Part shown: piece after piece, positions 38,717 to 55,952 of the stretch
Layout of the letters: each line of letters opens with the position of its first letter
Position numbering within the stretch: the first letter of the stretch is position 1
NCBI GenBank assembly: GCA_902797685.1
Contig: CADBTQ010000012.1
Coordinates: 8,753-72,752 of the forward strand
DNA length: 64,000 nt
Origin: an uncultured Eubacteriales bacterium
GTDB taxonomy: Bacteria > Bacillota > Clostridia > Christensenellales > CAG-1252
Direction of reading: 5' to 3'
Translations under genes and position numbers: made by a program
The notes under the pieces: generated by a model
Seen by the model: the letters and a program-made list of their open reading frames with translations, nothing else
Told to the model about the DNA's origin: nothing
Databases searched by the model: none

Positions 38717-38739
38717 ACGAACGCACAAGGAGAACGACG

Positions 38740-39360
38740 ATGGGACTACTCAAAATAGTATTTAACAACACAGGCAAGCCCCAAGGGACGATGGGCAAAA
38801 TGATGCTCAAAGGAATGAACGGCGGCTCGCACGCTACCCTTGCCGATTTCGGCATGTCCTTTTTGTCCGCGTCGGGCGTCAACCGCATCGCCGAACTGGG
38901 ATTTGGCGGAGGGCGCAATATCGGGGAATTGCTCAAAAAGTATCCTCACGCCACTTTGGACGGGGTGGATCACTCCCGCTTGTCGGTGGAGACCGCCAAA
39001 GAATACAACAAACAAAACGCCGACCGCATCGATCTAAGAGAGAGCACGATCGCCGATATGGATCTGCCCCTCGGGCGATACGATCTCGCCACCGCCTTCG
39101 AGACGGTGTACTTTTGGGGGGATATCCGCTTTTGCTTTGGCAAAGTGCACGACCTACTCAAAAGCGGCGGGAAGTTTTTGATCGTCAACGAGTCGGATGG
39201 CACGGACGATACGGGGCGCAAGTTTGAAGACATCATCGACAACATGAAAGTTTACACCGAAGAGCAACTGGTCGCAAGTCTCAAAGAAGCGGGGTTTGGC
39301 ATCGTAGAGGTACACCACCACGACCAAAAACCTTGGATCGCCATCCTTGCTCAAAAGTAA
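38740..39360 (+). CDS. Class I SAM-dependent methyltransferase
   Basis: 206 aa with motif I IAELGFGGGRN and a strong AAGGAG RBS. Confidence 0.7.
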   Translation: MGLLKIVFNNTGKPQGTMGKMMLKGMNGGSHATLADFGMSFLSASGVNRIAELGFGGGRNIGELLKKYPHATLDGVDHSRLSVETAKEYNKQNADRIDLRESTIADMDLPLGRYDLATAFETVYFWGDIRFCFGKVHDLLKSGGKFLIVNESDGTDDTGRKFEDIIDNMKVYTEEQLVASLKEAGFGIVEVHHHDQKPWIAILAQK

Positions 39361-39468
39361 CCCATGAAGTATCGCGGTATGCCCCAAGGTATGTGGGCGC
39401 TTTTTTTGCCCTATTACAACGCGAGCATCCCTGCCGCGGGGAAAACCGCGATAAAGGAGGAAAGAATT

Positions 39469-39720
39469 ATGACTAAAATCACGATAGGGATCGACGGCAT
39501 GATGTGCGGTATGTGTGAAGCGCATATTTGCGATACCATTCGCAAAGCCGTACCAAGCGCCAAAAAGGTAAAAGCGTCAAGGCACAAAAAAGAGGCGACC
39601 TTCCTTACGGACAAAGACGTGGACGAGCAAGCGGTCAAAACGGCTGTCGCCGATATGGGCTACCGCGTGCTTTCGTATCAGGCGGAAGCGTACCAAAAGC
39701 ACGGTCTGTTTGGTAAATAA
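39469..39720 (+). CDS. Heavy-metal-associated (HMA) domain protein, CopZ-like metallochaperone
   Basis: Start trimmed to ATG 39469 after AAGGAGG. The metal-binding loop GMMCGMCEAH matches GMxCxxC. Confidence 0.75.
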   Translation: MTKITIGIDGMMCGMCEAHICDTIRKAVPSAKKVKASRHKKEATFLTDKDVDEQAVKTAVADMGYRVLSYQAEAYQKHGLFGK

Positions 39721-39768
39721 GCCGTCGAAAAAACCAACCGAAGCGGAGCGATTGGCGCAAAAAGAGAA

Positions 39769-40569
39769 ATGATGGATCGAAAACCGAATTACAAAAACTG
39801 GGTGCCCACCGGTATGGTGGTGGGGTTTTGGACGGGATTTGGCGTTTGCTTGCTCTTTGCCGCCCTCTTTGGCGGATGGGGATTGACGAGCAAAACGATA
39901 TGGCAGATCGTGTTGTTTGGAGTATTTGCTTTGGGCGCCGTCGTGCTACTTCCCATCAGTCTTTATATGCAAACCTGGCACAACGCCTTCTCCTACACGG
40001 GCAAACGCAAACTGTCCAAGCGCATAGTGGAAGGCGTGGCAAACTACGTTGAGTTGACCCAAGGTCAAACTTGTTTGGACGTCGGGTGCGGCTCGGCGGC
40101 GTTGACGATAGCCGTCGCCAAACGCAATCCCCAAAGCCTTGTCGTGGGCGTGGATCGTTGGGGCAAGGACTACGCCTCTTTTTCGAAAGGGCTTTGCCAA
40201 GCCAACGCCCAAGCGGAAGGGGTAAACAACGTGCGTTTTGAAAAGGGTGACGCCACGTCTCTTCCCTTTGCGGACGAGACCTTTGACGCGGTGTGTAGCA
40301 ATTACGTCTATCACAACATCCGCTCTTCCGACAGACAAGCCATCTTGATGGAGACGCTGCGCACCCTCAAAAAGGGCGGGACGTTTGCCATCCACGACCT
40401 GTTTACCGCACAAAAATACGGGGATATGCAAGATTTCGTGCAATGTCTTCGCGACTTGGGATATCGGAAAGTGGAGTTGATCGACACGACCCAAGGGCTG
40501 CTGATGAGCGAAAAAGAGGCAAAACGACTTTGTCTTAACGGCTCGGCGATCCTAACGGGGACAAAATAA
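39769..40569 (+). CDS. Membrane-anchored class I SAM-dependent methyltransferase
   Basis: 266 aa with two N-terminal TM helices followed by motif I LDVGCGSAALT and a post-I/II region. Confidence 0.7.
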   Translation: MMDRKPNYKNWVPTGMVVGFWTGFGVCLLFAALFGGWGLTSKTIWQIVLFGVFALGAVVLLPISLYMQTWHNAFSYTGKRKLSKRIVEGVANYVELTQGQTCLDVGCGSAALTIAVAKRNPQSLVVGVDRWGKDYASFSKGLCQANAQAEGVNNVRFEKGDATSLPFADETFDAVCSNYVYHNIRSSDRQAILMETLRTLKKGGTFAIHDLFTAQKYGDMQDFVQCLRDLGYRKVELIDTTQGLLMSEKEAKRLCLNGSAILTGTK

Positions 40570-40624
40570 AAGGTGTCACCGACGGTGACACCCATTGGGC
40601 GGTCGGTAATCGACCGCTTTTTTT
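40562..40624. terminator. Pair of back-to-back hairpins terminating the convergent operons
   Basis: GGTGTCACC-gac-GGTGACACC is preceded by AAAATAAAA and serves the minus strand. GCGGTCG-gtaat-CGACCGC is followed by TTTTTTT and serves the plus strand. Confidence 0.7.
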
Positions 40625-40627
40625 GTT

Positions 40628-42838
40628 TTAGCCTTTGGGACGGGTGGATTTGACCAAAGTCAACACGTTGTTGGGCTCTATCCGCTCGTAAGACGCCGAA
40701 GCGCAAAGGCTTTTGACGATGGTGATACCGAAGCCGCCCAAACCGCTGCCCGCCACCAACGATTGGTCTGCAACGTTGGGTTTGACGGCAAGAGGATCGA
40801 AAGGCGCACCGTTGGACGAGACGGTCAAGACCACGTTGTCGTCTTGCTCTTTGGCGTCGACTTCCACCGCAAAGCCTTTGCCCGTCTTTTCGTAGGACAC
40901 CAAATTGTTGAGCAGTTCGTCGAAGATGACGTCAAACTCCCCCAATACGCTTGCGTCCAAATGGGCAAACGCCGAGTTAAACGCATCGGTCACCTGTTCG
41001 ATCGCGCCGAAGTCGGGATCTTCGATGCGGACGTGATACGATTTGCCTTTTGGCTCCCCTTTGGGCATAAACAGCAACATGGTCACGTCGTCGAACGGCT
41101 CTTCCCCGCCCACGAAGGCGGATAGCGCTTCCCGCATGGCGGGTAACACGTCAAGTCCCTTGGCGTTGCACTCGCGGAGTACCTCGTTGATACGGTCGTA
41201 ACCGAACTCCTCGTTGAGCGAATTGATCCCCTCGTTGAGTCCGTCGGTGTACATAAAGAGGCGCTTGCCCCCGATCTTGCACTTGGACGCACGATAGGGG
41301 AAACCTTTGATCCCGCCCAACACGAAGTTGGGGGCCACTTCCATGCGCTCCACCCCCTCGCGGGAGAGGAGATAGGGTCTTTCGTGCCCCGCGCTACAAT
41401 AGGTCATCTCCCCACTATCGAGATCGATCACCCCCACGAAAGCGGTGACGAACAGACCCGCTTTGTTGTTGACCATCAACTCGTCGTTGACCGAGGTCAA
41501 CGCCGCGCCCAAGTCGTCGGTGGACTGCAACGCGTTTTTGATCAAGCCTTTGGCTTTCATCATAAACAAAGCGGCGGGCACCCCTTTGCCGGTAACGTCC
41601 GCAATGACTACCGCCAAGCGGTTGCCGTCCAAATAGAAGTAGTCGTAGAAGTCGCCGCCCACTTCCTTGGCGGGGGTGACGGACGCTTCCACTCGCGCCT
41701 TGTCGTCCTCAAAACAAGGAGAAGGCAAGGCTTCCATCTGTATCTCGGTGGCGATCGCCAATTCCGCGTTGACACGCTCTCTTTCCTTGGCGTCGCTCTC
41801 TATTTTGAGGGTGTAGCGGATGATCTCGTCCTCTAAGGTGACGAAAGACGAGGACAACAGCCCCAATTCGTCCAAGGCTTTGATTTGGGGATCGATGACT
41901 TCCAATTTGTCACCTTGGAGCACCTTGTCGGTAAAGGACTTGGTACTGTCGGTCAGTTTGGTGATGTTTTTGATCAGTGCGAAGTGCACCAAGAGCGCAT
42001 ACGCCGCGACCAAAAGCACGGTCACCACCGACAGAGCGATCAATTCCAAATAGAGGAAGGTATTGACGGACTGCACCAAAGACTTTTCGTCGTACTCGAT
42101 AAACACGGTGGCGACGTACTCGTTTTCAAACACACCTTCTTCGATCTCCACGTCGTGATACAGATCGAAATAACGCATAGTGTGTCCGCCAAAGACGAAC
42201 TCTTTGTCCCCCTTGTCGGGGTTGGCTCCGTCCGAGTCGGTCATTTGATAGTAGTCGCCCGCAAGGCGCGCGCCCTCGGCGGGATTGTCTTCCAAACGGT
42301 AGTTGGAGTCGATCAGATAGACATACCGATCCCGATCCTCGTCGCGCCAAGCGACGAAGGCGTAATGCACCCCTTGGGTGGCAAATGCGGTCGCCAACTG
42401 CGCCGAGGTTTGGTAATAGGTATTGCGCCATTGCAGACTATACATGGACAGACCGATACCGATACCGCCGCCGGGGTACAGCTGACCGTATTTTTTGCCG
42501 CTGTAATACACGTATTTCTTTTGGGTCAAAGACAGTCGGGCGAGTTCTTCGGGTTGGGATTGATACCGCGCCGCCAAGTACGCGTCCATGCCCTCGTCGG
42601 TCGGGTCTTCCGCGTATTGAGCGCGCACGTACGTGCCGACCGCCGAGATGTCTTCGAGACGTCCCACGTCCTCGAAATAGCTTTCAAACTCCGCCGTACA
42701 ATGCTCGAGCGACTGATTGAAATTGGAGCGCGTCCTCTCGCGGTAGATAAAAAAGCTAAACAGAAAAGCCGCGACCATCAACGCGACGGACAATCCCGCC
42801 CCGATGAGGATGATCTTGGCTCGTATGCCAAATCGCAT
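40628..42838 (-). CDS. Transmembrane sensor / HAMP / PP2C (SpoIIE-RsbU type) phosphatase fused to a C-terminal RsbW-like GHKL (HATPase) domain
   Basis: 736 aa: TM1, a ~250-aa extracytoplasmic region, then TM2. The PP2C motifs are GGDFYDYFYL...VVIADVTGKGVPAALFMM...LFMYTDGLNE...DDVTMLLF. The C-terminus has the N-box DELLNNLVSY and a GLGGFGITIV G-box. Confidence 0.85.
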   Translation of the reverse strand: MRFGIRAKIILIGAGLSVALMVAAFLFSFFIYRERTRSNFNQSLEHCTAEFESYFEDVGRLEDISAVGTYVRAQYAEDPTDEGMDAYLAARYQSQPEELARLSLTQKKYVYYSGKKYGQLYPGGGIGIGLSMYSLQWRNTYYQTSAQLATAFATQGVHYAFVAWRDEDRDRYVYLIDSNYRLEDNPAEGARLAGDYYQMTDSDGANPDKGDKEFVFGGHTMRYFDLYHDVEIEEGVFENEYVATVFIEYDEKSLVQSVNTFLYLELIALSVVTVLLVAAYALLVHFALIKNITKLTDSTKSFTDKVLQGDKLEVIDPQIKALDELGLLSSSFVTLEDEIIRYTLKIESDAKERERVNAELAIATEIQMEALPSPCFEDDKARVEASVTPAKEVGGDFYDYFYLDGNRLAVVIADVTGKGVPAALFMMKAKGLIKNALQSTDDLGAALTSVNDELMVNNKAGLFVTAFVGVIDLDSGEMTYCSAGHERPYLLSREGVERMEVAPNFVLGGIKGFPYRASKCKIGGKRLFMYTDGLNEGINSLNEEFGYDRINEVLRECNAKGLDVLPAMREALSAFVGGEEPFDDVTMLLFMPKGEPKGKSYHVRIEDPDFGAIEQVTDAFNSAFAHLDASVLGEFDVIFDELLNNLVSYEKTGKGFAVEVDAKEQDDNVVLTVSSNGAPFDPLAVKPNVADQSLVAGSGLGGFGITIVKSLCASASYERIEPNNVLTLVKSTRPKG

Positions 42839-42848
42839 AGCCTTCTCC

Positions 42849-43145
42849 TTATTTGACGGTGAGCACGTTGATAAAGCCGGTCACCCCGAAGATCTCGCGC
42901 ACCACGGCGTTGATGTGGTGGATCTCCATCTCTTTGCCGGCGTCGTCCAACTCGCGCTTGAGCGCCAACAGCACCCGAAGTCCCGCCGAGGAGATGTATT
43001 CCACCTCGGAAAAGTCCAAGACGACCTTGTTTTCGGTGATGGTCTCGCTCTTGATGGCTTGATCAAACTGCGCCGAGGTGACGGTGTCCAATCTGCCGAT
43101 GATTTTGACGTTAAACTCTTGACCGTGTTCAAATCTGACTTCCAT
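42849..43145 (-). CDS. STAS-domain anti-sigma-factor-antagonist-like protein (RsbV/SpoIIAA family)
   Basis: 98 aa. LDFSEVEYISSAGLRVLLAL contains the conserved phospho-acceptor Ser context. Confidence 0.9.
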   Translation of the reverse strand: MEVRFEHGQEFNVKIIGRLDTVTSAQFDQAIKSETITENKVVLDFSEVEYISSAGLRVLLALKRELDDAGKEMEIHHINAVVREIFGVTGFINVLTVK

Positions 43146-44901
43146 TTTTTTGTTCTCCTAACTTGATTTTGAATACCGTATTATTGAGGTTGAGTACCCT
43201 CATATAATTCATTTCGTCTGCCAACCCCTCGATCAAGGCGATGCCGCCCGTGAGGTACTGTTCGTCCTGCTCGTACTCGTACTTAGTGGGGTCGAAAGGC
43301 ATGCCGTCGTCACGGATACGAAGGAGCATTTCCTCCGCCCCTATTTTGAGATTGACGTCTACGAAGTGGGCGGCTTGCCGCTTGTAACCGTAGTGCACGA
43401 TATTGGCGACCATCTCCTCGCAAGCCAAGCCGACCACCTGTGCGTTGCGGTTGTCCACCCCGTGGGACAACGCGAAATCGACCACGTCTTTGGAGACGAC
43501 CGCCGCGTTCTCTTCCCTGTTTTCGACCGAGATGTCAAAGGTATTGACGTCGTCTTTTTCCAACATGAACAGTCCGTGATATTGCTTGTGCTTGGCATTG
43601 TAGATCAGCACGAACGCGTACGTCACGATAATGACCGCCACCTCGGTGACCACCCGTGCCAGAGCAAAGCCGAACATACCGTTGGTTTTGAGTAACACCA
43701 AAGTCAACGGAATGATAAACACCGCTTCCCGCAAGATGACCGCCACGATAGCGGGCAGGTTTTTGCCGATGGCGGGATAATAGTTGGTCGAAAACTTGTT
43801 GATCTCCAAGGGGATCGCCGCAATCAGGTAGATGCGCAAGATGTACTCCACTTGTCCGAGAGAGAGGCCCGTCCCCTTAAAGCCGAACAAAGAGGCGTAG
43901 GCACGGGGCCATATCATAATGAGGGCGGTCAGGGCGGCGGTCACCGCGATATTGATCCAATAGATACGACTGACCACCGATTTGAGGGAGTAAAAATCCC
44001 TCTCCCCATGCAGCACCCCGCACACGTTGGGGATAAGTCCCAATATACCGCCCGAAAAGAGGTCGAACACAAAGATCAAGTTGCTCACCAAACCAAAGAT
44101 GATCAGATCCACCTCGGCGGTGATCATGCGGCTGAACACCACGTTGATGACGAAAGTCTGCACCGCAAGGAGCAAAAAAGTCAACGCGGTGGGCAGTGAC
44201 GCCTTGACAGCCGCGCCAAACTCCTTGGCAGCCCCTTTGAGGTTGAAGGTAAACTTGAGCATCCTCTTTTTGGAGCGGGCATAAAAGATGACGGTGACAA
44301 GCCCTACCGCATAGCCGAAGGGCGTAGACAAAGCGGCGCCGTACGCCCCCATCGAAAACACCTTGATAAACAAGATCTCCGCGCCCACCTTGACGGCGTT
44401 GGCGAGGATATAAAAGATAGAAGACAGGCGGGGATTGTTGTCGGTGGCGATAAAGGTCGCCAGCATCATGGCAAGCATGAGCACCGGGTCGGTCGCCATG
44501 TACACCAAGATATATTGGTAGGACTCCTCCACCAAACTCTCGGCAAACAGCCCCGCCAAGGGGCGCGCCACGAAGGGAGAGAGGATGGCGAACACCGCCG
44601 ATACCGCCGTCCCCCATATCAGACACGCCGAAAACACCTTGTTGGCGGCGACGAGATTGCGCTTGCCCAACAAGTTGGCGATGGCGATGGAGCCGCCCGC
44701 CGCCAAGGCAAAGCCGGGGATCTGTATGACGTACAAGACGGGCATGACCAAAGAGTCGGCGGTAAGCGAGTCCGATCCGATCATGTTGCCGATGAGGATG
44801 CCGTCTAATAGCGACCCAAACTGCATGGCAAAGATCATCAGCACCGACGGGAGCAGATATTGATAAAACTTTTTGTTGATCAGCTTGGCGTTGCGTTGCA
44901 T
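43129..44901 (-). CDS. MATE-family efflux transporter fused to a C-terminal RsbW/SpoIIAB-like GHKL kinase domain
   Basis: Start trimmed to ATG 44901 (TAATG overlap with the NRPS stop). The N-terminal ~445 aa is a 12-TM MATE domain (FYQYLLPSVLMIFAMQFGSLLDGILIG). The last ~146 aa (43132-43569) carry the N-box EEMVANIVHYG, G1 RDDGMPFDP and G2 GGIALIEGL. Confidence 0.8.
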   Translation of the reverse strand: MQRNAKLINKKFYQYLLPSVLMIFAMQFGSLLDGILIGNMIGSDSLTADSLVMPVLYVIQIPGFALAAGGSIAIANLLGKRNLVAANKVFSACLIWGTAVSAVFAILSPFVARPLAGLFAESLVEESYQYILVYMATDPVLMLAMMLATFIATDNNPRLSSIFYILANAVKVGAEILFIKVFSMGAYGAALSTPFGYAVGLVTVIFYARSKKRMLKFTFNLKGAAKEFGAAVKASLPTALTFLLLAVQTFVINVVFSRMITAEVDLIIFGLVSNLIFVFDLFSGGILGLIPNVCGVLHGERDFYSLKSVVSRIYWINIAVTAALTALIMIWPRAYASLFGFKGTGLSLGQVEYILRIYLIAAIPLEINKFSTNYYPAIGKNLPAIVAVILREAVFIIPLTLVLLKTNGMFGFALARVVTEVAVIIVTYAFVLIYNAKHKQYHGLFMLEKDDVNTFDISVENREENAAVVSKDVVDFALSHGVDNRNAQVVGLACEEMVANIVHYGYKRQAAHFVDVNLKIGAEEMLLRIRDDGMPFDPTKYEYEQDEQYLTGGIALIEGLADEMNYMRVLNLNNTVFKIKLGEQKNGSQI

Positions 44902-47900
44902 TAGATGTCGCTCCTTGTAAAGAAGTTGAGTGAATCGAGCGAGTTGATCGCGTTGCGCAAATACTGCTCGTCGGTAATGGGCCACTTGTAGCCCAAGTGA
45001 TACAGCGCTTTGACCGTAAACTGGTTGTCGGACAGGATAAACGAGTGGGTGTGCGCGTCGGAAGAGGCGTAGTTGAGCAGAGAGGACACCAACATATTTT
45101 TGCTGTCGTCCGCCATCATCTCGCGCATCGCCTCGTCAAAGCGAGCGTCCGAGACGACCTCGATATCGAAGCCCAACTCGTTCATGACCGCGACGATGTC
45201 GCCCATCTGCACCATGTGGGAGTTAGCGGCGTGGAACACGGTAAACTTGGAGTCGGTCTGAGACAACAACAGCACCACTTTCGCCACCTCGTCGATAGGG
45301 GTAAAGTCGACGGCAACGTCCATCGACCCCACCGGGAACTTGTGCAGCGTAGCGTACCCTTTGAGGTCGCGCATAAAGCCGTTGGTGATGGAGTTGGCTT
45401 GGAACTCGCCGTCGCTTTGCCGGCTCATGAGGTTGCCCACGCGGATGACCTTGCCGTCCAAGCCTTCGTCCACTCCTTCCAGTATCGCCTTTTCGGCGTT
45501 GAACTTGGAGTGCACGTACTTGTTGGAGATGTCCTGTCCAAAGTCGAGCATATCTTCCCTCATGCGGAAAGACTCGTCAAACTTGCCGTCCACGTTCTCG
45601 CCCGCGACCGACAGAGTGGAGATCTGCACCAATCTGACGCCCCTCTCTTTGGCGATGCCGATCAGGTTTTGCACCCCGCCCACGTTGACCCGCTCGATGC
45701 TGTCGTCCACGGCAAAGTGCTTGACCAAGGCGGCGCAGTTGATGATGGTATCGAACTCCACCTCTTTGAGTTTGGCGCCAAGATCGGGATCGGTCACGTC
45801 CGAATCCACGATGGTGACGTATTGTTCGAGCTTGTCTTCCAAGGGCGAATCGAAGTAATAGGCAAGCATACCCGTCAGTCTATCTTTGGCGTTGAGGCGG
45901 GAAGAGCGTGCCAAGGCGACCGTATGCACACCTTGGTCCAATAATTCTTTGAGGATATGGATGCCCAAAAATCCCGTCACGCCCGTGACGAGCACCTTGC
46001 CCAAGGGACGGCTGAAGTCCACGTCGTCCACGTATTCGGGACGATTGTAACCCATGGAGCCGACCACCACTTGGGGTTTGTCCTCCTCTTTGGCGGTCTC
46101 CCCCGACTTGGAGAGGATATGGCGTTCCAGATCCAATACGGTGGAATACTCAAACACGTCTTGGTAGGCGATAGGCAGGTTTTGTTGCAGCGCCAACATG
46201 GCGATCTTAGAGGCCGACAGCGACGTGCCGCCGAGGTCGAAAAAGTCCTCGTCTACGCCCACTTGTTTGACCCCCAACGCCTTGGCGAAGATGCCCACCA
46301 GTTGCTCCTGAAGCCTGGTGGTCGCCCCCTTGACGGGTCCTTTGTTTTGTTGGGTAAACTCCCCTTCGGGCAGGGCTTTCTTGTCGATCTTGCCGCTGGC
46401 GGTAAGGGGCATTTTGTCCAACTGCATCAACACCTTGGGGATCATGTAGGGGGTCAACGACTTGGACATATGCGCGATCAAATCGTTTTTGTCCACCGTG
46501 GAAGTGGCGGTATAGTACGCCGCGAGATAGTCCCCGTCGGTGGCGTTGGTCTTGACCACGATGATAGAGCGGGATACGGAGGGATAGGAGTTGAGCACCT
46601 TTTCGATCTCGTCCAACTCCACCCGCAAGCCTCTCAACTTGACTTGGTTGTCGAGCCTGCCGAAAAACTCCACGTTGCCCTCGGCGTTGTAGCGAGCCAA
46701 ATCGCCGCTGCGGTAGGCGCGCTTGCCGTCCACCGTGATAAACTTTTCGCGGGTCTTGTCTTCCATACCGAGGTAGCCGATACCCACGCACTCGCCTGCG
46801 ATGGTCAAGTCGCCGATGGCGCCGATAGGCAGGATATGCCCCGCTTGATCCAAGATATACAAAGCGGTGTTGGCAAGGGGTTTGCCGATGGTGACGTACT
46901 TATCTTCCACCTTGTGATAAGTGCAGGTGATGGTGGTCTCGGTGGGACCGTAACCGTTGTAGATGGCGGCGTGTACCCCAAGCGAACGCAATTTGGCGCA
47001 CAATTCCTGCGGCACCGCTTCCGCCCCCATATCCAACGCCTCGAACTGTTTGAGCGCGTCCACAAACTCCTTGGAGTCGATCACATTGGACACGAACGAG
47101 GGAGTCATAAACATCAGGTTGACCCCTTCCGCCTTGAGCGTTTTGGCGAGCAACAAGGGGTTTTCGATCTCCTCTTCGGTGGCGATCACGGCGGTATAGC
47201 CGTGGGATAGGGGCACGCACTCCTCCTGCAAGGACGCGTCAAACGCAAACGACGCAAACGAGCAAGACACCGCGCCGCCCTTGATACCGCGGTACAAGGC
47301 GGTACCGCGATTGGTGCCGTCCAATACGTAGTTGACGAGGTTGCGATGGGAGATCATCACCCCTTTGGGTTTGCCGGTAGAGCCCGACGTGTAGATGATA
47401 TAGCACAGCGAATCCTGCGGGATAGCGAGGTCGGGATTGGCGACCTTGTCGCTCTTTTGCGCCTCTTCCAACAACACGACCTCAAGACCGCTCTTGGCGA
47501 TCAGCTCTTGCTTTTGCTCGGCGATCTCCCCGATCGTCACGAGGTATTTTGCCGCCGAATCCTCGGCGATATACTCGATACGCTCGTCGGGGTACTTGGG
47601 ATCCACGGGCACGAAAGCACCGCCCGACTTGACGATACCCTGCCTTACCACGTAAGCGTCCGCGACGCGAGGCATCATCATCATGACCTTGTCCCCGATC
47701 TTGACGCCTGCGTCGATCAAGGCGTGCGCCACCTTGTTGGCGCGCTCGTTGAGATCCTTATAGGTGTATCGACCCCCTCTGCCCACCACGGCAAGGTGAT
47801 CGGGGTTGAGGCGGGCTTGTTTTTCCACTAACTGATTGAAAGACACGTCGGGAATGGGCTCGAAGGTCGAGTTGAACTCGGCGTACATCTCTCTGTCTTT

Positions 47901-50900
47901 GGCGGGCAAGGTATCGATATCCTTGATCGACTCTTTGCGGGACAATTCCCCAAGCACCAACTCAAACAAGCGGGCGAAAGAGTCCATACTGTCTTGGTTG
48001 TAGCAGGACTCGTCCCACTCGAAGTGAGCGCGGTACACCCCCTTCTCCAAAAACACGTCCACCGAAAAGGCGCTCTTGGGGGTGTCCGACTCGATCAAGA
48101 CCGATTCCACTTTGGCGTCGCCGATGTGATCGAAGGTAAACGAATCCCCTTGGTAGGCGAACATCACGTCCGCGGGCACGTCAAAGTCGGCGACCACTTC
48201 GGCAAACGAATAGACGCTGTTTTGCAGTTTGACGAGGTCTTCTTTCATCTTGGTCAAGCCGTCCAACACCTTGCCCTCTTCCTTGTACGCCATATACACG
48301 GGCAGGGTCTTGACGAGCATGGACACGGTGTTGGCGGTACGGGAAGAAGTCCTACCGTCGTAGATGGTGGTATACAGGCTGTCCGACTTGTACAAGTACT
48401 TGGACAGCGTAAACCCAAAAGCGTAGTTGAAATAGGCGTTGAGGGTCAGCTTGTGTTCGCTCACAAACTTTTTGAGCCCCTCGACGTCAAGGGTCAAGAA
48501 GTAGTCGTGCGAGCAAAGACGAGATTGCTCCTTGACCTTCATATCCTTTTTGACGACGTACTCCCCGTCCATATCTTTGAGGTAATCCGCATAAAAGGCT
48601 TTGGCAGCAGCCAATTTGTCCTCGGTGCGATCTTCCTTTTCCTTGAGGGCGACTTCGTAGCCCGTAAAGGTTTCCGCTTCCACCTTTTGCCCTTGGTAGG
48701 CTTTGCCCAAATCGGCGAGCAAGATCGCCTCGCTGGTGCCGTCGCAGAGAATGTGATGGAAATCGAGGAACAGATAGTCCCCGTCGTGGGCGTGGTAGAT
48801 CTCCGCCCGATACAGGGGAGAGGCGATCAAGCCGAAGGGGCGCACCAAGTCGGCGGGCACCGCTTCGGGCACGTCGTACTCGCGTATCACGGGAGCAAGG
48901 TCGCTGCGGCAAGCCAAAATGTCCCCGTCCTCGTTCATACGAAGGGTGGTCTTGACGTAGGAGTGGGCGTCGATGACCTCGCTAAGCGCCTTCTTGAGCC
49001 GAGCGATATCCATCCCCTTGGGGAGACGGAACAGGATGGGAATGTTGTAGTTAGTGGTGTTGGGATGGGCGGCGCACTCCACGAAGATGCCCTCTTGGGT
49101 CTTGGAGATGGGATACTCGGACAAGATCTCGTAGGTCTTCTGTTCTTCCGCACCCGCCAACGCCTTGGCAAGCGCGCGCACGGTGGGGTACTGTTTGAGC
49201 ATACCGTTATCCACGTCTTTGCCGAAGCGCTTGGACAGCATGATGGCAAAACGAATGGACGTCACGCTGGTCAGTCCCGCCTCGTAGACGTCGGTCGTCA
49301 CGCCGAACGAATCGGTGCCGATGATCCCTTTGAGAATATCGTAGATCGCCGTCTCGTCCTCACCCTCGGGCAACACCTTCTCCGCCGCACGTACCTGAGG
49401 CACGGGCAGAGCGCGTTTGTTGACCTTTTGGTTTTGGTTGAGAGGGATCTTGTCGATCTGCATGGTGTAAGCGGGCACCATATAGGGGGGCTTGCGCGAG
49501 GCGATAAACGCGTTGAGCGCGTCGATATCCACGGGGTGGTCGCTCACCACGTAAGCGCAAATAAACTTGATGCCCGAAGGATCGGTAAAGTCCTTGACCG
49601 TGGCGTCGGCGATCCCCTCGAATTGGCGGATCACTTCTTCCACCTCGGACAACTCCACGCGGAAGCCGCGGATCTTGACTTGTCCGTCCTTACGTCCGAT
49701 AAAGTCCAACGTGCCGTCCAGCAAGTAGCGCACCACGTCGCCCGTCTTGTACAAACGGCGGAAAGCGGGGTCTGGATCAAAGCCGTTAGTCAAAAACGCC
49801 TTGGCGTTTTCTTCCTCGCGATTGAGATAGCCGCGGGCGACTTGCGGACCCGATATATACAGCTCGCCCTGCGCCAAGGGGGGCAGACGGCGACCGTTTT
49901 TGTCTAAGATATAGGATTTGTAACAGCAGTTGACCTTGCCGATGGGCACGCGGTAGTACTTGCGGTCGACAAGTTGCGACGAGCAGTACACCGTCCCCTC
50001 GGTGGGGCCGTACGCGTTGTAGAGCGCATATCCTTTAGGCGGGTCGATGGGAACGAGTTTTTCCCCACCCACCGTGAGATAGCGCAAGGTCTTGGATTCG
50101 ATCATCTCCACGAATTGTCTGCCCACTTGGGTGGTCAAGATGGCGTGGGTGATACCGTTGTCGTTGAAATAGTCCCCCAACTTGATCAGATCCAGCCGCA
50201 TTTCGTCGGGAATGACGTACACGCAGCCGCCGTGAGTTAGGGCGGGGTACAAGTCCATCATATCCGCGTCGAAGCCGTAGGACGCGTACGCCGCCACCCG
50301 AGCGGTCTCGTCCACTTGGTGCGCTTGGGCGTGGAAGGAGCAAAAGGCGTTGATATTGCCGTGTTCGAGCATCACGCCCTTGGGCACGCCGGTAGAGCCC
50401 GACGTGTACAGCATAATAAACAGGTCTTGGGGACGGGGTTTGCCCGTGGGTTTGCCTTGGGGCAACGACCCGATCTCGTCGGTGTACAGCACCTCTCCCT
50501 CAAAGGCGGGCAACAACTCGCCCAAAGAGGGGTCTCGAATGATGGCTTTGCTTGCGGCGTCCTTGACCATAAACTCCAACCGCTCCTCGGGGTACGAGGG
50601 GTCCAACGGTTGGTAAGCGGCGCCCGACTTGATCACGCCCAAACTGGCGATGACGATGTACTCGGACTTGCGAATGAGAACGGACACCACGTCTTCTCTG
50701 CCGATCCCTTTGGATTGCAGATAGCAAGCGATACGGTCGCTCTTTTCGTCCACCTGAGAGTAGGTGTAACTCTTGTCCTTAAAGACCACGGCGGGTCGAG
50801 AGGGAAAGCGCTTGACCATCTCGGCAAAGTGGTCGAGCACGGTGAGGGCGGGGTCGATCGCGGAAAGATCCGCTTGGTTGAAACCGTCTAAGAGTCGCTT

Positions 50901-52112
50901 ATCCTCTTCGGTGACCAAGTCCACTTGTTGCAACAGATCGCGGTGCAAAAACTCCTCGAGCACTTGGTCGTACATCGCCGCAAAGTGGCGCAGGGTGCTC
51001 TCCTCGTAGAGGTCGGAGCGGTACTCCACCCACATCTCGAAACTATCGCCCGTGCGGTGCAACTCGATCGCCAAATTGCCCTTGCCGTCACGTCTTACCA
51101 GTTGCTCGACGGGTAAGGTCTTACCGCCCAAGGTCGTATGATAAAAAGAATCCCCTTGATAAGCGAACATCACCCCGCAATTGACGCCGAGATCTTGGCT
51201 CAACGCCGAGAAGGGGTACAGCAAGTGTCGTACGCTGTCGGACAACTGCTTACTCGCGCCTTTGACGTAATCTTCAACCGTCTCGACCGTTTGAAGATAC
51301 AAAGGAAACGTCTTGACGAACATACCCATACTCGACTGTGTATCGGGGTTGCGCCCGTTGGACACGGTCAAAAAGAGGGCTTTGTCGTCCATGTTGATCT
51401 TGGAAAGAAGATACCCGAACGCCGCCGCGAAATAGGACGAGGTCTTGGCTTGCCAAAGGGTGGTCTTACCCTTGACCGCTTGGTTGGAAACGAACAGTTT
51501 AGTCTTGAAAAAGCCGTAGGCGGGCGCGCCGTCGTTGCGGTCGAAGATCAAGCCCGAATCGGTCTCGGGGTCGGCGACCGTCTTTTCCCAATACGCCTTG
51601 TCCTCTGCCAAGCGGGGAGACGACAACAGTTCGGCTTCCTGCCTCGCCCACACGTTGGCGTCCACCGTTTCGGGAGAAAGGGGTCTGCCCTCGTAAGCGG
51701 CGGTCACCTCGTCGATAAAGAGTTTGAGCGAGGTGCCGTCCATCAGGATATGGTGGAAGTCAAACACGAAGTAATACTCCCCCGCCACCTTGTGCAACGA
51801 CAGGCGGTAGAAGTGACTACCTATCATCTCGAAAGGAGGGGACTCGAGATGGAGATCATTCTCTTCGATCAAGGGGATCTCGATCTCCCGAGGCTCCACG
51901 TGTTTGAGGATAGCGCCGTCTTCTCCCTGCGTCAACACGGTATTGAGATAGGGGTGCGCCTCAAACACCGACTTGACCCCTTTGACGAAGCGGTCGACGT
52001 CGAGGTCTGTGCCCAAATCGACGTAATTGGTCAAATTGTAAGCGTCCGTGGGGGTAAGACAGGACGCAAAAATCCCTTCTTCGGTCTTGGATAACGGATA
52101 GTAGTTCTTCAT
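44901..52112 (-). CDS. Bimodular non-ribosomal peptide synthetase, C-A-T-C-A-T-R (terminal thioester reductase)
   Basis: 2403 aa. C domains have HHILMDG (aa 120-126) and HHILCDG (1119-1125). A domains have LYTSGSTGVPKG (569-579) and IYTSGSTGKPKG (1574-1584), NAYGPTE/NGYGPTE, YKTGD/YRSGD and GRxDxQVKxRGxRVEL. The T-domain Ser residues are in AGLTS(949) and GGTS(1964). The R domain has TGVTGFLG (2043-2050) and YVHSK (2199-2203). Confidence 0.95.
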   Translation of the reverse strand: MKNYYPLSKTEEGIFASCLTPTDAYNLTNYVDLGTDLDVDRFVKGVKSVFEAHPYLNTVLTQGEDGAILKHVEPREIEIPLIEENDLHLESPPFEMIGSHFYRLSLHKVAGEYYFVFDFHHILMDGTSLKLFIDEVTAAYEGRPLSPETVDANVWARQEAELLSSPRLAEDKAYWEKTVADPETDSGLIFDRNDGAPAYGFFKTKLFVSNQAVKGKTTLWQAKTSSYFAAAFGYLLSKINMDDKALFLTVSNGRNPDTQSSMGMFVKTFPLYLQTVETVEDYVKGASKQLSDSVRHLLYPFSALSQDLGVNCGVMFAYQGDSFYHTTLGGKTLPVEQLVRRDGKGNLAIELHRTGDSFEMWVEYRSDLYEESTLRHFAAMYDQVLEEFLHRDLLQQVDLVTEEDKRLLDGFNQADLSAIDPALTVLDHFAEMVKRFPSRPAVVFKDKSYTYSQVDEKSDRIACYLQSKGIGREDVVSVLIRKSEYIVIASLGVIKSGAAYQPLDPSYPEERLEFMVKDAASKAIIRDPSLGELLPAFEGEVLYTDEIGSLPQGKPTGKPRPQDLFIMLYTSGSTGVPKGVMLEHGNINAFCSFHAQAHQVDETARVAAYASYGFDADMMDLYPALTHGGCVYVIPDEMRLDLIKLGDYFNDNGITHAILTTQVGRQFVEMIESKTLRYLTVGGEKLVPIDPPKGYALYNAYGPTEGTVYCSSQLVDRKYYRVPIGKVNCCYKSYILDKNGRRLPPLAQGELYISGPQVARGYLNREEENAKAFLTNGFDPDPAFRRLYKTGDVVRYLLDGTLDFIGRKDGQVKIRGFRVELSEVEEVIRQFEGIADATVKDFTDPSGIKFICAYVVSDHPVDIDALNAFIASRKPPYMVPAYTMQIDKIPLNQNQKVNKRALPVPQVRAAEKVLPEGEDETAIYDILKGIIGTDSFGVTTDVYEAGLTSVTSIRFAIMLSKRFGKDVDNGMLKQYPTVRALAKALAGAEEQKTYEILSEYPISKTQEGIFVECAAHPNTTNYNIPILFRLPKGMDIARLKKALSEVIDAHSYVKTTLRMNEDGDILACRSDLAPVIREYDVPEAVPADLVRPFGLIASPLYRAEIYHAHDGDYLFLDFHHILCDGTSEAILLADLGKAYQGQKVEAETFTGYEVALKEKEDRTEDKLAAAKAFYADYLKDMDGEYVVKKDMKVKEQSRLCSHDYFLTLDVEGLKKFVSEHKLTLNAYFNYAFGFTLSKYLYKSDSLYTTIYDGRTSSRTANTVSMLVKTLPVYMAYKEEGKVLDGLTKMKEDLVKLQNSVYSFAEVVADFDVPADVMFAYQGDSFTFDHIGDAKVESVLIESDTPKSAFSVDVFLEKGVYRAHFEWDESCYNQDSMDSFARLFELVLGELSRKESIKDIDTLPAKDREMYAEFNSTFEPIPDVSFNQLVEKQARLNPDHLAVVGRGGRYTYKDLNERANKVAHALIDAGVKIGDKVMMMMPRVADAYVVRQGIVKSGGAFVPVDPKYPDERIEYIAEDSAAKYLVTIGEIAEQKQELIAKSGLEVVLLEEAQKSDKVANPDLAIPQDSLCYIIYTSGSTGKPKGVMISHRNLVNYVLDGTNRGTALYRGIKGGAVSCSFASFAFDASLQEECVPLSHGYTAVIATEEEIENPLLLAKTLKAEGVNLMFMTPSFVSNVIDSKEFVDALKQFEALDMGAEAVPQELCAKLRSLGVHAAIYNGYGPTETTITCTYHKVEDKYVTIGKPLANTALYILDQAGHILPIGAIGDLTIAGECVGIGYLGMEDKTREKFITVDGKRAYRSGDLARYNAEGNVEFFGRLDNQVKLRGLRVELDEIEKVLNSYPSVSRSIIVVKTNATDGDYLAAYYTATSTVDKNDLIAHMSKSLTPYMIPKVLMQLDKMPLTASGKIDKKALPEGEFTQQNKGPVKGATTRLQEQLVGIFAKALGVKQVGVDEDFFDLGGTSLSASKIAMLALQQNLPIAYQDVFEYSTVLDLERHILSKSGETAKEEDKPQVVVGSMGYNRPEYVDDVDFSRPLGKVLVTGVTGFLGIHILKELLDQGVHTVALARSSRLNAKDRLTGMLAYYFDSPLEDKLEQYVTIVDSDVTDPDLGAKLKEVEFDTIINCAALVKHFAVDDSIERVNVGGVQNLIGIAKERGVRLVQISTLSVAGENVDGKFDESFRMREDMLDFGQDISNKYVHSKFNAEKAILEGVDEGLDGKVIRVGNLMSRQSDGEFQANSITNGFMRDLKGYATLHKFPVGSMDVAVDFTPIDEVAKVVLLLSQTDSKFTVFHAANSHMVQMGDIVAVMNELGFDIEVVSDARFDEAMREMMADDSKNMLVSSLLNYASSDAHTHSFILSDNQFTVKALYHLGYKWPITDEQYLRNAINSLDSLNFFTRSDI

Positions 52113-52180
52113 GCCCGGGTTCTCCTTGATTAACGGCGGTAAGCCACCGGCTTGAGGGGGCGATACCCTCTCTTGTCAGA

Positions 52181-53353
52181 TTAAAAAGCCAGCGAATCGA
52201 CCGAAGCGATCAACTTAGCCAATTCCTTTTTGTAGAATGCGATCTCCTCCGCGTGGTCTTCCCCGCGGTGCAAAGTGCGGCGGACGGCGCGTTGCAACAG
52301 GCGGGTGTACCCGATGACTTGCGCCTTTTCGGCATACCCTTTGAGGGTCTCCTCGTCGGTGGTGTCGAAGTATTTTTGCAAAGTCTTGTGCCACACTTGA
52401 ATGGACTCGTCCGCGGTGATACCCAAGAAGTCGCCCGCGTGATCCATGTCAAGCGAGTGGAATCCGATATAGGCGTTGAACACCGAGCCGAACTCGAACA
52501 CGGGGTTGCCCACGCACAAAGTATCCATATCGATCAAGATGGCTTCGCCGTTTTGGACCATCACGTTTTTGAGGTGATAGTCCCCGTGGATGAGGTGATG
52601 GGACTCGGGTACGGCTTTGACCAGTTGCTCCAATTTGGCGCCCACGTCCTCGTCCAAGTAGGTCTTGGCGATGTTGACCCACCTAAGCGCCAATTCCTTG
52701 ATATTGGGGATGTCTTCGTCTTCCACCTCGATGGAGTGGATCTTTTTGAGCAGATCCACGTAGATATCCACGTAATGATCCAATTTGTCGGGTTCTTGGG
52801 TGATGCACGCCGCCAAGGATTTGGCGTTGAGCAACTCGAACACGGTGCCGTACAACTTGCCCACTTGCACGATGTCGTAGGAGATGGCGGTGTTGACGCC
52901 CAGCACGAACGCCTTTTTGGCGAGCGAGCGCTCCCTTTGGATGTCCTCGAAGCTGTCGGGGTTGGCGTAGACCTTGACGATGGTCTCGGGATCGATGCGA
53001 TACACCTTGCCGTTGGCGCCCTCGCCGATGACCTCGCAACCGTCCACCGATATCTTTTTGTACGCCTTTTCCACGGGCATCAACTCGGTAAAGCCGGTCA
53101 TGTCGAAGATCTCGTACACGTCGGTGGTGACGTTGACGAGTTTGAGGCTGCTATACGACTTGCGCAGACGCAAGACAACTCGTAGTCCCGCCGACGAGAT
53201 GTACTCCAGATCGGCAAGATCCAGCACCAGTTGGTCAAACGACTGACCGCTCAGCACCCGGTTGATCTCCTGCGCCACCGCTTCGGCGTTGTTGGAGTCG
53301 ATACGACCGTCCAAATAGATGACCAATTTACTTCCGATAAACTCATTTCTCAT
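52181..53353 (-). CDS. STAS domain fused to a protein-kinase-like / aminoglycoside-phosphotransferase-fold kinase domain
   Basis: 390 aa. The N-terminal STAS is LDLADLEYISSAGLRVVLRL. It is followed by the Gly loop IGEGANGKVYRI..VKVY, the catalytic HGDYHLKNVMV and the metal-binding LIDMD. Confidence 0.8.
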   Translation of the reverse strand: MRNEFIGSKLVIYLDGRIDSNNAEAVAQEINRVLSGQSFDQLVLDLADLEYISSAGLRVVLRLRKSYSSLKLVNVTTDVYEIFDMTGFTELMPVEKAYKKISVDGCEVIGEGANGKVYRIDPETIVKVYANPDSFEDIQRERSLAKKAFVLGVNTAISYDIVQVGKLYGTVFELLNAKSLAACITQEPDKLDHYVDIYVDLLKKIHSIEVEDEDIPNIKELALRWVNIAKTYLDEDVGAKLEQLVKAVPESHHLIHGDYHLKNVMVQNGEAILIDMDTLCVGNPVFEFGSVFNAYIGFHSLDMDHAGDFLGITADESIQVWHKTLQKYFDTTDEETLKGYAEKAQVIGYTRLLQRAVRRTLHRGEDHAEEIAFYKKELAKLIASVDSLAF

Positions 53354-53919
53354 TGTGGTTCCCCCTTAAATACCAAGTAAACTAATTGTTTGTATTCCAA
53401 ATATGCGAACGTGTCGCCCAATTCGCTCTCCAGTAAGCCCAATATCGAGCGATAGTACCATTCGTGTTGGGCTTTGCGCCTCTCGTTAAACGCCTCGAAC
53501 ACGCGGTTGCCGATGAGCACGTAATCTTTGGAAAGCGCACGCATGTTGCTCAATTTGTCGGACAGCCACACGATCTTTTCTTCTCTGTTGGCTTTTGCCA
53601 ACTCGTCCAAGGATTCCTGCTTGCGTATCTTCCAAGTGACGGAAGCGGGCTGGTCTTTGCGCTTGTTTTCGGTCTCGCTCTTAACTAGGGCGAGCACCCT
53701 CTTGCCAAACAACTCTTCCACTTCCTCCTCCGTGGCGTCGGTGTCTTCGAGTACGTCGTGCAGAAGCGCCGCGATGATGACGTCCTCGTCGTCTGTCAGC
53801 GAAGCCGCCACCGCCGCCGCTTCCATGGGATGCAGGATATACGGCACGTGCGACAACTTGCGTATCTGCCCCTCGTGCATTCGAGCGGCATAGTCGATCG
53901 CTAATTGTAGTCTCGTCAT
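53350..53919 (-). CDS. HD-domain protein of the RelA/SpoT (p)ppGpp-hydrolase type (small alarmone hydrolase-like)
   Basis: The track ORF is trimmed to ATG 53919 (ATGA overlap with the upstream stop). YILHPMEAA...ALLHDVLEDTDAT matches the H...HD...ED signature of SpoT-type hydrolases. 189 aa. Confidence 0.75.
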   Translation of the reverse strand: MTRLQLAIDYAARMHEGQIRKLSHVPYILHPMEAAAVAASLTDDEDVIIAALLHDVLEDTDATEEEVEELFGKRVLALVKSETENKRKDQPASVTWKIRKQESLDELAKANREEKIVWLSDKLSNMRALSKDYVLIGNRVFEAFNERRKAQHEWYYRSILGLLESELGDTFAYLEYKQLVYLVFKGEPQ

Positions 53920-55949
53920 AGTTTTTTCTCCAATATCAATATATTTTGCCCGTCGACGTAGTCGTAGCGCACGTCGTCGACCAAGCGTTTGGTCATATAT
54001 ACCCCCAATCCGCCCTCTTTGCGCTCCTCGGCGCTCAAGGTCACGTCGGGCTCTTTGGCGGCGAGAGGGTTGTAGGGTTTGCCGTGGTCTTGGAAGGTGA
54101 TAGACAGCTTGTCCTCTATCCACTGCAGCTTGACAACGACGTCGCCCGCTTGCCGCCCCAGATAGGCGTAACTCGCGACGTTGACGAAGATCTCCTCCAC
54201 CGCGACCCCCAACTGCATCAGCCACTTGGGGCTATCCGCTTTTTGAGAGGCAAACCCCTCCACAAAAGCGTTCACGTCGTCCAACTCTTTGGGATCGGCG
54301 GCAAACGTTCTCGTCTCACCGCCGCCTCCTTGATAACTCATACAAAGCATAGTCATATCGTCAAATTGGGGCGCTTCGCCCACAAACGCGCCCACTCGCG
54401 CTACAACGTCCTCGACAGTGGCTTGGGGAGTATTGCCCGCCAACGTCTTCAACGCCTCGAGGGTGGCGTCCAATCCAAACATCTTTTGCTCGCCGTCGGT
54501 GGCTTCGGGCACCCCGTCGGTGTAGAGGAACAACTTGTCTCCCCGCTTCATGGTAAACTCGAAGTTGGTGTATTTGACCCCCTCCATCGCGCCCACGATC
54601 ACCCCGCGCTTGGCTTTGACGAACTCGGCGCTCCCGTCGGGATGGGTCAGGATGGGTTGGTCGTGTCCCGCGTTGGAAGCGATCACTTTGCCGGTGGATA
54701 TCTCCACTATTCCCAACCATATCGTCACGAACATCTCGGCTTGGTTGTGCGAGCAGATGCGGTCGTTGACGAACGCCATTGCGTCCGCGGGACTTAATCC
54801 GCTCGTCACCCCCTCGTTGAGAAGGATCTTGGTGACCATCATAAACAGAGCCGCGGGCACGCCCTTACCCGACACGTCGCCGATCATCACGGCAAGGTGA
54901 TCGGGATCGACCAAGAAAAAGTCGTAGAAGTCGCCTCCCACTTGCTTGGCGGGATTCATGATCCCGTACAAGTCGAACTCCTTGCGATCGGGAAACGCGG
55001 GGAACCGGGAGGGCAACGACCCTTCCTGTATTTGCTTGGCGATATCCAACTCCGCCCCGATCTTTTGTTTTTCGGCGATGGCGTCGGACAAGTGGTCGAT
55101 GTACTCCAGAGTGGCGGTCTCCATCGTCGCCATGGCTTGCGCCAAAGCGGAGATCTCGGAGATACGGCTGATATTGCCATCCAAAGGCACGTCGGGAGCG
55201 CTGTTGTGGGTGGCAAAGCGCTGCGCTTCGTCCATGATGGTGCGGATGGGCTTGACGAATTGATCTTTGGCGATGAACACGTAAGCGGTGATGACGACCA
55301 ACGCCAACAGCGCCGTCGTCACGCTGATGATGATCGCGTAACTATTGCCCCACTTGTGCAACAAGTCCATCGACTGCTGTACGCAGATGATCCCCGCCAC
55401 CGTGCCGTCCTGCCGCTTTAGCGGGATAAGGCTGTTGATATGCGCGGGCGCCGAAGCGGTGCGTTCTCTCGTGACGGTCGCGCGCTCCAACTTTCCCTCC
55501 ATCAGGTCTTGGTACACGCCCCAGTAGTCGGACGACTTTTGCTCCCAGACCGAGCCCAGTTCCCACGGGGTGTAGCCCGACCTATCGCTCGGACAGTTGA
55601 TGATAGAGGTGTATTTGTGATAGTCGTACTCTTCCAAGGGGCGGATGATATAGACGATGTACACCCCTTGATTTTCGCAAAACTGCTTAAGCAGCGCGGT
55701 CTTTTGGGCATGCTCGTCCAATTTGTCGCCCGCAAGATACGCGTCCGCGTCCTCTCCGGTGACGAATTGGGTCACTGTGGTCGCGGTGGCAAAAGCGGAC
55801 TCGTTGTAGCGGGTGGTCAAGGTATCGTTGAACTTGCTGTACCCGATCGCCGCCGTGATCACGCCGAAAATCACCAACAGGATCGTCGTCGACACCACGA
55901 TATTGAAAACGAGCGAATTATGTATGCGCTTTGCCTTTGATTTTGCCAT
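53916..55949 (-). CDS. Transmembrane sensor (Cache-like ectodomain) / HAMP / PP2C phosphatase fused to a C-terminal RsbW-like GHKL domain
   Basis: 677 aa. The PP2C motifs are GGDFYDFFLV...VMIGDVSGKGVPAALFMM...LFLYTDGVPE...DDMTMLCM. The C-terminus has the N-box EEIFVNVASYA, QDHGKPYNP and EGGLGVYMTKRL. Confidence 0.85.
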   Translation of the reverse strand: MAKSKAKRIHNSLVFNIVVSTTILLVIFGVITAAIGYSKFNDTLTTRYNESAFATATTVTQFVTGEDADAYLAGDKLDEHAQKTALLKQFCENQGVYIVYIIRPLEEYDYHKYTSIINCPSDRSGYTPWELGSVWEQKSSDYWGVYQDLMEGKLERATVTRERTASAPAHINSLIPLKRQDGTVAGIICVQQSMDLLHKWGNSYAIIISVTTALLALVVITAYVFIAKDQFVKPIRTIMDEAQRFATHNSAPDVPLDGNISRISEISALAQAMATMETATLEYIDHLSDAIAEKQKIGAELDIAKQIQEGSLPSRFPAFPDRKEFDLYGIMNPAKQVGGDFYDFFLVDPDHLAVMIGDVSGKGVPAALFMMVTKILLNEGVTSGLSPADAMAFVNDRICSHNQAEMFVTIWLGIVEISTGKVIASNAGHDQPILTHPDGSAEFVKAKRGVIVGAMEGVKYTNFEFTMKRGDKLFLYTDGVPEATDGEQKMFGLDATLEALKTLAGNTPQATVEDVVARVGAFVGEAPQFDDMTMLCMSYQGGGGETRTFAADPKELDDVNAFVEGFASQKADSPKWLMQLGVAVEEIFVNVASYAYLGRQAGDVVVKLQWIEDKLSITFQDHGKPYNPLAAKEPDVTLSAEERKEGGLGVYMTKRLVDDVRYDYVDGQNILILEKKL

Positions 55950-55952
55950 AAC

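Follow-up and report, generated by a model that had tools for sequence, protein, structure and literature searches.

A reductase-terminated two-module peptide synthetase of a rumen bacterial clade, predicted to release an N-acyl dipeptide aldehyde

What does a large peptide synthetase of an uncultured Eubacteriales bacterium release, and is its product capped at the amino end? These questions are raised by a stretch of 64,000 nucleotides (contig CADBTQ010000012.1 of assembly GCA_902797685.1, forward-strand positions 8,753 to 72,752; hereafter the window, whose own numbering is used throughout). On its reverse strand, at 44901..52112, the window carries a gene for a non-ribosomal peptide synthetase (NRPS) of 2403 amino acids with the domain order condensation, adenylation, thiolation (carrier), condensation, adenylation, thiolation, reductase (C-A-T-C-A-T-R). 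A preliminary description of the window had predicted that this enzyme makes an N-acylated dipeptide aldehyde. The analysis presented here points to the same compound class. Taken as a whole, the explanation that the gene encodes a functional two-module NRPS that would release an N-acyl dipeptide aldehyde is held with confidence a little above even. The gene itself is intact, with the complete C-A-T-C-A-T-R order and every catalytic motif present.

The gene is a single open reading frame (ORF) with an ATG start, preceded at 8 nt by the ribosome-binding site AAGGAGA; the longest ORF in any other frame within 44901..52112 reaches 637 amino acids. All Pfam domains lie far above their cut-offs (for example, AMP-binding at 5e-157 and Condensation at 9e-84), and all are encoded on the reverse strand. 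The N-terminal condensation domain, C1 (aa 3-407, 50892..52106; Pfam Condensation, E 1.8e-40), carries the motif HHILMDG (aa 120-126, 51735-51755). It is followed by the adenylation domain A1 (aa 430-896, 49425..50825), made up of AMP-binding (430-763) and AMP-binding_C (823-896), and by the carrier T1 (PP-binding, aa 923-985, 49158..49346), in which Ser949 of the motif AGLTS (49266-49280) is the predicted phosphopantetheine site. The second module opens with the elongation condensation domain C2 (Condensation, aa 998-1405, 47898..49121) and its motif HHILCDG (aa 1119-1125, 48738-48758). It continues with A2 (aa 1430-1908, 46389..47825; AMP-binding 1430-1781 and AMP-binding_C 1835-1908) and with T2 (PP-binding, aa 1936-1999, 46116..46307), whose motif LGGTS (46221-46235) holds Ser1964. 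The terminal thioester reductase, R (aa 2039-2403, 44904..45998), is recognised by Pfam NAD_binding_4 over aa 2042-2279 (E 6e-31). It contains TGVTGFLG (aa 2043-2050, 45963-45986), ISTLS with Thr2166 (45609-45623, located by alignment) and YVHSK with Tyr2199 and Lys2203 (aa 2199-2203, 45504-45518). The Pfam order agrees with the single-gene architecture given in the preliminary description, whose borders lay within about 15 codons of those found here, and the motifs quoted there (HHxxxDG, AGLTS, TGVTGFLG and YVHSK) are all in place.

To which family does such an enzyme belong? In a protein search, thousands of relatives came up, the top one 72% identical and about 100 proteins of the same length at 55-64%, all of these from metagenome assemblies. 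A scan of species-representative genomes yielded 565 loci, and the family counts given below rest on the best 80, whose domains were mapped with hidden Markov models (HMMs) built from the family. Because the scan was seeded on AYASYGFD and IPLNQNQK, two peptides typical of the NRPS family, the locus set is biased to relatives that carry them. The best 80 loci come mostly from rumen metagenome-assembled genomes (MAGs), headed by a roe-deer rumen Clostridia MAG at 72% identity. The relatives include Clostridia, Erysipelotrichaceae, Acholeplasmatales, Christensenellales and Lachnospiraceae. Loci from Blautia, Lachnospiraceae, Ruminococcus, Sporofaciens and others match at 39-47% identity, those of Blautia, Lachnospiraceae and Ruminococcus over the full length. 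Many studies of bovine and sheep gut and rumen metagenomes have recovered near-identical DNA. C-A-T-C-A-T-R is the order in 36 of the 80 loci; 24 have A-T-C-A-T-C-A-T-R and four have four modules. By sequence, this NRPS sits in a rumen clade and not in a human-gut one. In some Lachnospiraceae relatives a second, single-module NRPS (C-A-T-R, with the adenylation code DIFHLAGIGK) lies a few kb downstream of the main synthetase (19534-23835 in locus L018, 23068-27309 in L028 and 13544-17050 in L045).

An NRPS family of gut bacteria makes protease-inhibiting peptide aldehydes, some of them with N-acyl tails (PMC8210680; PMC12327764; PMC12282076). The synthetases of gut Clostridia described in these papers, which are reported to make di- and tripeptide aldehydes (Guo et al. 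2017, Cell 168:517, as summarised there), resemble the present one in their terminal reductase, their anaerobic Firmicute hosts and their predicted aldehyde products. The likeness is drawn from review descriptions. In contrast to those synthetases, the gene described here belongs to a rumen clade of Clostridia, Erysipelotrichaceae, Acholeplasmatales and Christensenellales MAGs with a common A2 code. The enzyme is, as judged from its sequence, an uncharacterised member of the known family of reductase-terminated peptide-aldehyde synthetases of gut and rumen anaerobes. Assignment to the gut-Clostridia family, which the preliminary description had made, is thus supported both by architecture and by homology to the 565 relatives, Lachnospiraceae, Blautia and Ruminococcus among them. 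The rup cluster of Ruminococcus bromii is likewise a gut Firmicute NRPS with a predicted N-acylated dipeptide aldehyde (PMC12327764). R. bromii is not among the 80 best loci, and rup is likened here by description only. Ruminopeptin was reportedly never isolated, its structure having been inferred, according to what is said of the work of Schneider and Balskus (2018, Tetrahedron 74:3215), from enzymology and synthesis; candidate ruminopeptins are said to inhibit a Glu-specific protease. Because the A2 pocket has no basic residue, a Glu-type residue beside the aldehyde is unlikely here, unlike in ruminopeptin.

How would the product leave the enzyme? The T2-R region finds its top solved match in the didomain of a peptidyl carrier protein and reductase of Mru_0351 from Methanobrevibacter ruminantium (6VTJ, E 3e-78), and R finds its second in the AusA reductase (4F6L, E 4e-48, 168 bits), which has been described as the only solved aldehyde-forming NRPS reductase (PMC8024701). 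In a full-length alignment, the Gly-rich NAD(P)H motif, Thr2166, Tyr2199 and Lys2203 line up with both structures, and R clears the Pfam NAD_binding_4 cut-off of 20 with 108 bits. All three R motif checks are passed by 53 of 78 family R domains. Reductive release, which had been proposed from a short-chain dehydrogenase/reductase (SDR) motif and YxxxK, is supported by these motifs and by homology to the Mru_0351 and AusA domains; the catalytic triad is present as Thr/Tyr/Lys. Over the whole protein, the top NCBIfam match is the AusA model (NF047350), with 1404.1 bits over aa 393-2387, C1 lying outside the model. AusA (PznA), the aureusimine synthetase of Staphylococcus aureus, is likewise dimodular and corresponds to this NRPS from A1 to the end of R. 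It releases an aldehyde, as is predicted here, and its reductase has the same catalytic residues. Unlike the present NRPS, AusA has the order A-T-C-A-T-R without an N-terminal C domain, and its product can cyclise to a pyrazinone through a free amine because that domain is absent. Mru_0351 of M. ruminantium M1 is the closest solved relative of R, but it comes from an archaeal host, has four modules and has an unknown product.

The N-terminal C domain is the feature on which the class of the product turns. C1 begins at aa 3, with no carrier domain before it, and its HHILMDG is intact, as the preliminary description had said when it proposed acylation of residue 1. All 41 N-terminal C domains of the relatives retain the second (catalytic) His, and 40 of them the xHxxxDG core; the remaining one has Asp-Arg in place of Asp-Gly. 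The clade of C1 comprises 28 C domains and contains only N-terminal ones (support 99 in a FastTree tree; SH-aLRT 81 in an IQ-TREE tree of a subset). Within 10 kb of the NRPS, the 27 loci of the C1 clade hold no separate A, T or C gene save for one opposite-strand ORF (L008). The lipo-initiation starter C domains of surfactin SrfAA, CDA and rhizomide RzmA are alike in being N-terminal, carrying HHxxxDG and lacking a preceding carrier, and C1, unlike C2 at E <=0.01, weakly matches RzmA-Cs and CDA-C1. In the C-domain region of the AusA model, C2 scores 110 bits and C1 46 bits. The longer members of the family bear on the same question. In 19 relatives with three or four modules, Asp235 of the loading A domain is replaced by Val, Ile, Leu or Ala, giving FVAL or FVVL and not FDAS, with the other core motifs kept. 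As these loading domains lack Asp235, the 19 enzymes start with a carboxylic acid, and such acid-loading starts would make N-capped peptide aldehydes usual in the family. N-capping thus looks typical of this NRPS family, and C1 most likely N-acylates in trans.

Several further observations on C domains can be recorded here. When scored with HMMs, 15 of the 19 C domains that follow acid-loading modules, and none of the 14 that follow amino-acid-loading modules, score higher with the C1 model. We at first took this as likening C1 to the former group and have downgraded it to weak support, since the IQ-TREE subset gives three separate groups and branch lengths explain the score difference. The N-terminal C domain of another C-A-T-C-A-T-R locus (L048, 1751-9034) is closest to the C domain after the acid-loading module in L018 (6527-15502), and six more N-terminal C domains share that clade. 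From this grouping, the loading module seems to have been repeatedly lost or gained in the family. Metatranscriptome contigs of a related strain show in C1 two single-nucleotide indels, a deletion and an insertion, separated by 4 nt (window 51606-51610), a compensated frameshift that alters only one or two codons.

Which residues would be joined? The ten-letter adenylation codes were read from BLASTP and MAFFT (--add and L-INS-i) alignments to GrsA-PheA, with a PheA numbering that was checked against 1AMU (100% match over residues 184-526). The A1 code is DAMITGAVYK and the A2 code DAQFDGGITK, so that both codes of the preliminary description are reproduced. Codes ending in Cys, which arise from a one-residue gap after position 330 in BLASTP, were rejected, as both MAFFT alignments are ungapped after GPTE. 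The family's ten-letter codes do not occur in the literature searched. The A1 code is identical at seven of ten positions to DALVTGAVVK, the Tyr code of the Stachelhaus table. Among near relatives it varies at positions 239, 278, 299, 322 and 331 and stays hydrophobic. The unusual A10 motif of A1, PLNQNQKVNK, keeps the catalytic Lys896 and is a variant conserved in 53 of 76 internal A domains; the catalytic Lys of A2 is Lys1908. The A2 code is constant, apart from Ile or Val at 330, in the 14 closest loci in which A2 was recovered. Its nearest counterparts are presumably the Cys code of ACV-synthetase, DHESDVGITK (6/10), and the Gln code DAQDLGVVDK (5/10). A substrate call for A2 from these codes was rejected because an identity of 5-6/10 is too weak. 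Many family A domains that differ at 236, 239 and 278 share an Asp299-Gly-Gly-Ile-Ser/Thr core, which in A2 may be a lineage trait and not a specificity determinant. The AGLTS of T1 had been described as unusual beside GG(H/D)S; the motif is there, but it is no oddity of this protein: among carriers that serve a C domain it is the most frequent one (58/116, the others being close variants). G946, T948 and S949 of T1 are invariant in the family alignment, and xGGTS or xGGSS is found in 77 of the 81 carriers that precede R in relatives.

These features together suggest the following pathway. A phosphopantetheinyl transferase (PPTase) encoded elsewhere in the genome would convert Ser949 and Ser1964 to their holo forms. 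A1, whose code is nearest to the Tyr type, would load a hydrophobic or aromatic amino acid onto T1, while A2, with a predicted roomy and polar pocket (Gln239, Asp299, Gly301 and Gly322), would load the second residue onto T2. C1 would acylate the amine of residue 1 in trans, the donor most likely being an acyl-coenzyme A or acyl-carrier-protein thioester of primary metabolism, and C2 would make the peptide bond. Finally, the SDR-type R domain would reduce the thioester on T2 with NAD(P)H and so set free an N-acyl dipeptide aldehyde. This is the most likely product, predicted with a modest lean in its favour. The aldehyde would inhibit Cys or Ser proteases through a reversible covalent bond, and its export would fall to the MATE exporter whose start overlaps the NRPS stop.

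A number of observations weigh against this pathway, and part of them favour other outcomes. In the protein search and the cluster look-up, the close relatives are named only 'amino acid adenylation domain-containing protein', and among relatives more than 45% identical none has been characterised for product, substrate or activity. The score on the AusA model lies under its equivalog cut-off of 2500, and R scores 138.6 bits on TIGR01746, aligned over positions 1-370 of 371, with a cut-off of 213.35. Because these curated cut-offs are missed, the NRPS is not an AusA orthologue, yet by homology it is clearly of AusA-like kind. Further points concern C1. It is the least conserved domain of the enzyme, with a mean identity to relatives of 48% (58% for C2 and about 70% for the A and R domains). 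Substitutions of the first His in HHxxxDG affect 4 of 41 N-terminal C domains, whereas all 119 internal C domains retain it. Its likeness to starter C domains is low (20-31 bits among solved structures: RzmA 31, CDA-C1 20) and falls below that to elongation C domains (50-60 bits: LgrA 60, TycC 51). Its family-specific clade is separate, in the IQ-TREE subset, from the C domains that follow acid-loading modules. A C-domain phylogeny had been proposed as a check of starter status; within the family, C1 forms a clade of N-terminal domains only, and the scores against solved structures are nearer to elongation than to starter C domains. Were C1 a non-acylating, vestigial or structural domain, the enzyme would release a free dipeptide aldehyde, which would pass through a dihydropyrazinone to a pyrazinone, as for AusA and most gut clusters in other hosts. 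Products of the gut family have indeed been isolated as pyrazinones that arise by non-enzymatic cyclisation and oxidation (PMC12327764; PMC8210680), and no acyl-loading gene was found in the window or near the relatives' NRPS loci. Against such an outcome, C1 belongs to an old clade with members in both Bacillota and Mycoplasmatota, nearly all of which retain the full-length domain of 400 residues together with its catalytic His and Asp-Gly. A-T-C-A-T-R enzymes such as AusA do without an N-terminal C domain, so that it is not needed for the fold, and the relatives with acid-loading modules indicate that N-capping is common in the family. A non-acylating C1 is doubtful, though it is the alternative that deserves most attention. 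A four-electron reduction by R to an N-acyl dipeptide alcohol, like that of myxalamid MxaA or myxochelin MxcG, is considerably less probable. R also matches the MxaA reductase (4U7W, E 2e-17) and the MxcG model, and two- and four-electron NRPS reductases cannot yet be told apart by sequence or structure (PMC8024701). The AusA reductase match is nevertheless far above that to MxaA (168 versus 67 bits), and characterised members of the gut family release aldehydes; on these two grounds the aldehyde is favoured.

The synthetase could also be silent or inactive in this organism, for want of a cognate PPTase or of expression. Neither a PPTase nor an MbtH protein, a thioesterase or any further C, A, T or R domain was found in the 64-kb window by Pfam on all large ORFs or by searching all six frames with family HMMs and motifs, which reproduces the earlier observation that PPTase, MbtH and thioesterase genes are absent from it. 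The missing PPTase adds to the points against the proposed pathway. In most near relatives (L001, L002, L004-L008 and L011-L013) the gene immediately upstream of the NRPS encodes an Sfp-type PPTase homologue, and its place is taken here by a gene for a fusion of STAS and an APH-type kinase (52181-53353, reverse strand). However, there is no PPTase next to the NRPS of the closest relative, L072, either, and the NRPS frame in the window is intact, with all motifs and a good ribosome-binding site. The operon is also covered by metatranscriptome contigs. Two bovine runs from one sample hold 36-40% of the gene's sampled words, and contigs 95-99% identical to the window tile 40634-59000. The interval 40000-40633 is empty of such contigs although a DNA run covers it, and the boundary coincides with a strong predicted intrinsic terminator that closes the operon (40571..40593, reverse strand; a 10-bp stem with 6 G-C pairs, then TTTATTTTGT). 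This coverage is consistent with the entire operon being transcribed in vivo and counts in favour of the proposed pathway. Its weight is limited, since the contigs were assembled at low depth, derive from a related strain in one sample and may reflect DNA carry-over. A silent or inactive enzyme is very improbable.

The N-acyl dipeptide aldehyde pathway also draws on the first of the genes downstream of the NRPS, all of which lie on the same strand. The NRPS stop overlaps, as TAATG, the ATG of a MATE exporter with a C-terminal RsbW-like HATPase_c_2 domain (43129..44901; Pfam MatE and HATPase_c_2). An alternative exporter start at GTG 44985, which would overlap the NRPS by 81 nt, was rejected, since relatives carry stop codons in that upstream frame; the ATG at 44901 is accordingly taken as the start. 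The exporter fusion adjoins the NRPS, on either side, in 55 of the 80 loci. It is followed by a free-standing STAS protein of 98 amino acids (42849..43145; Pfam STAS, E 1e-14), an order that the nearest relatives share. The operon ends with a gene for a membrane fusion of a SpoIIE-type PP2C phosphatase with HATPase_c_2 (40628..42838; Pfam). STAS and PP2C genes occur in about half of the 80 loci, the PP2C-HATPase_c_2 fusion in about 40. A comparable neighbourhood has been reported from M. ruminantium M1, where mru0068, with two C-A-T modules, has genes for two serine phosphatases, an anti-sigma-factor antagonist and a MatE exporter on its flanks (PMC2812497). Compared by description, this cassette (Leahy et al. 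2010) has the same set of neighbour genes as the present operon and is also from the rumen, but its host is an archaeon in which the genes are thought to be of bacterial origin, and its product is unknown (PMC2812497).

The upstream side of the operon is less widely shared. The STAS-APH fusion, an HD hydrolase, a second PP2C-kinase gene and a gene for a 516-aa membrane protein have no counterpart in the 80 loci, and the kinase part of the STAS-APH fusion has no tblastn match in any of them. Just past the operon terminator, on the opposite strand, lie three genes for S-adenosylmethionine-dependent methyltransferases and a small ORF (37796-40569, forward strand), of which none is conserved beside the NRPS in relatives. 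Elsewhere, the window contains a V-type ATPase operon (1-7185), clpB (34342-36945) and a gene whose product of 1810 amino acids combines MBG_2 repeats with a weak CopC-like segment and is probably a large surface protein (24208-29640, reverse strand). A genuine SpoIIE gene (SpoIIE_N and PP2C) at 17562-19823 on the forward strand suggests that the host belongs to spore-forming Clostridia. In one contig of DNA run X1, 25 foreign letters connect 46392 to 54611; because only 21 nt fit one side, this junction is most likely an assembly artefact or comes from another organism.

The gene fits a known pattern and holds no surprise for a specialist. Its interest lies in its setting, as gut-bacterial peptide aldehydes are potent protease inhibitors and products are known for very few of the predicted synthetases. 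The clade is widespread in fore-stomach metagenomes of cattle, sheep, goat and deer, an environment in which it seems to be transcribed. Its clade-wide A2 code and conserved N-terminal C domain frame two questions, namely which amino acid A2 activates and which acyl donor C1 uses. One specific answer can be offered as a speculation that is improbable: the DAQFDGGITK clade of Bacillota and Mycoplasmatota MAGs may make an undescribed N-acyl dipeptide aldehyde with a polar or basic aldehyde residue, for example a leupeptin-type acyl-(Tyr/Phe-like)-argininal. Such a compound would be directed at trypsin-, clostripain- or gingipain-like proteases of rumen microbes and not at host cathepsins, and would be exported under a fused exporter-kinase switch. 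If this were true, the product could naturally slow the breakdown of protein in the rumen. A defined product would provide a handle on the microbial control of rumen protein breakdown, which matters for nitrogen use in livestock.

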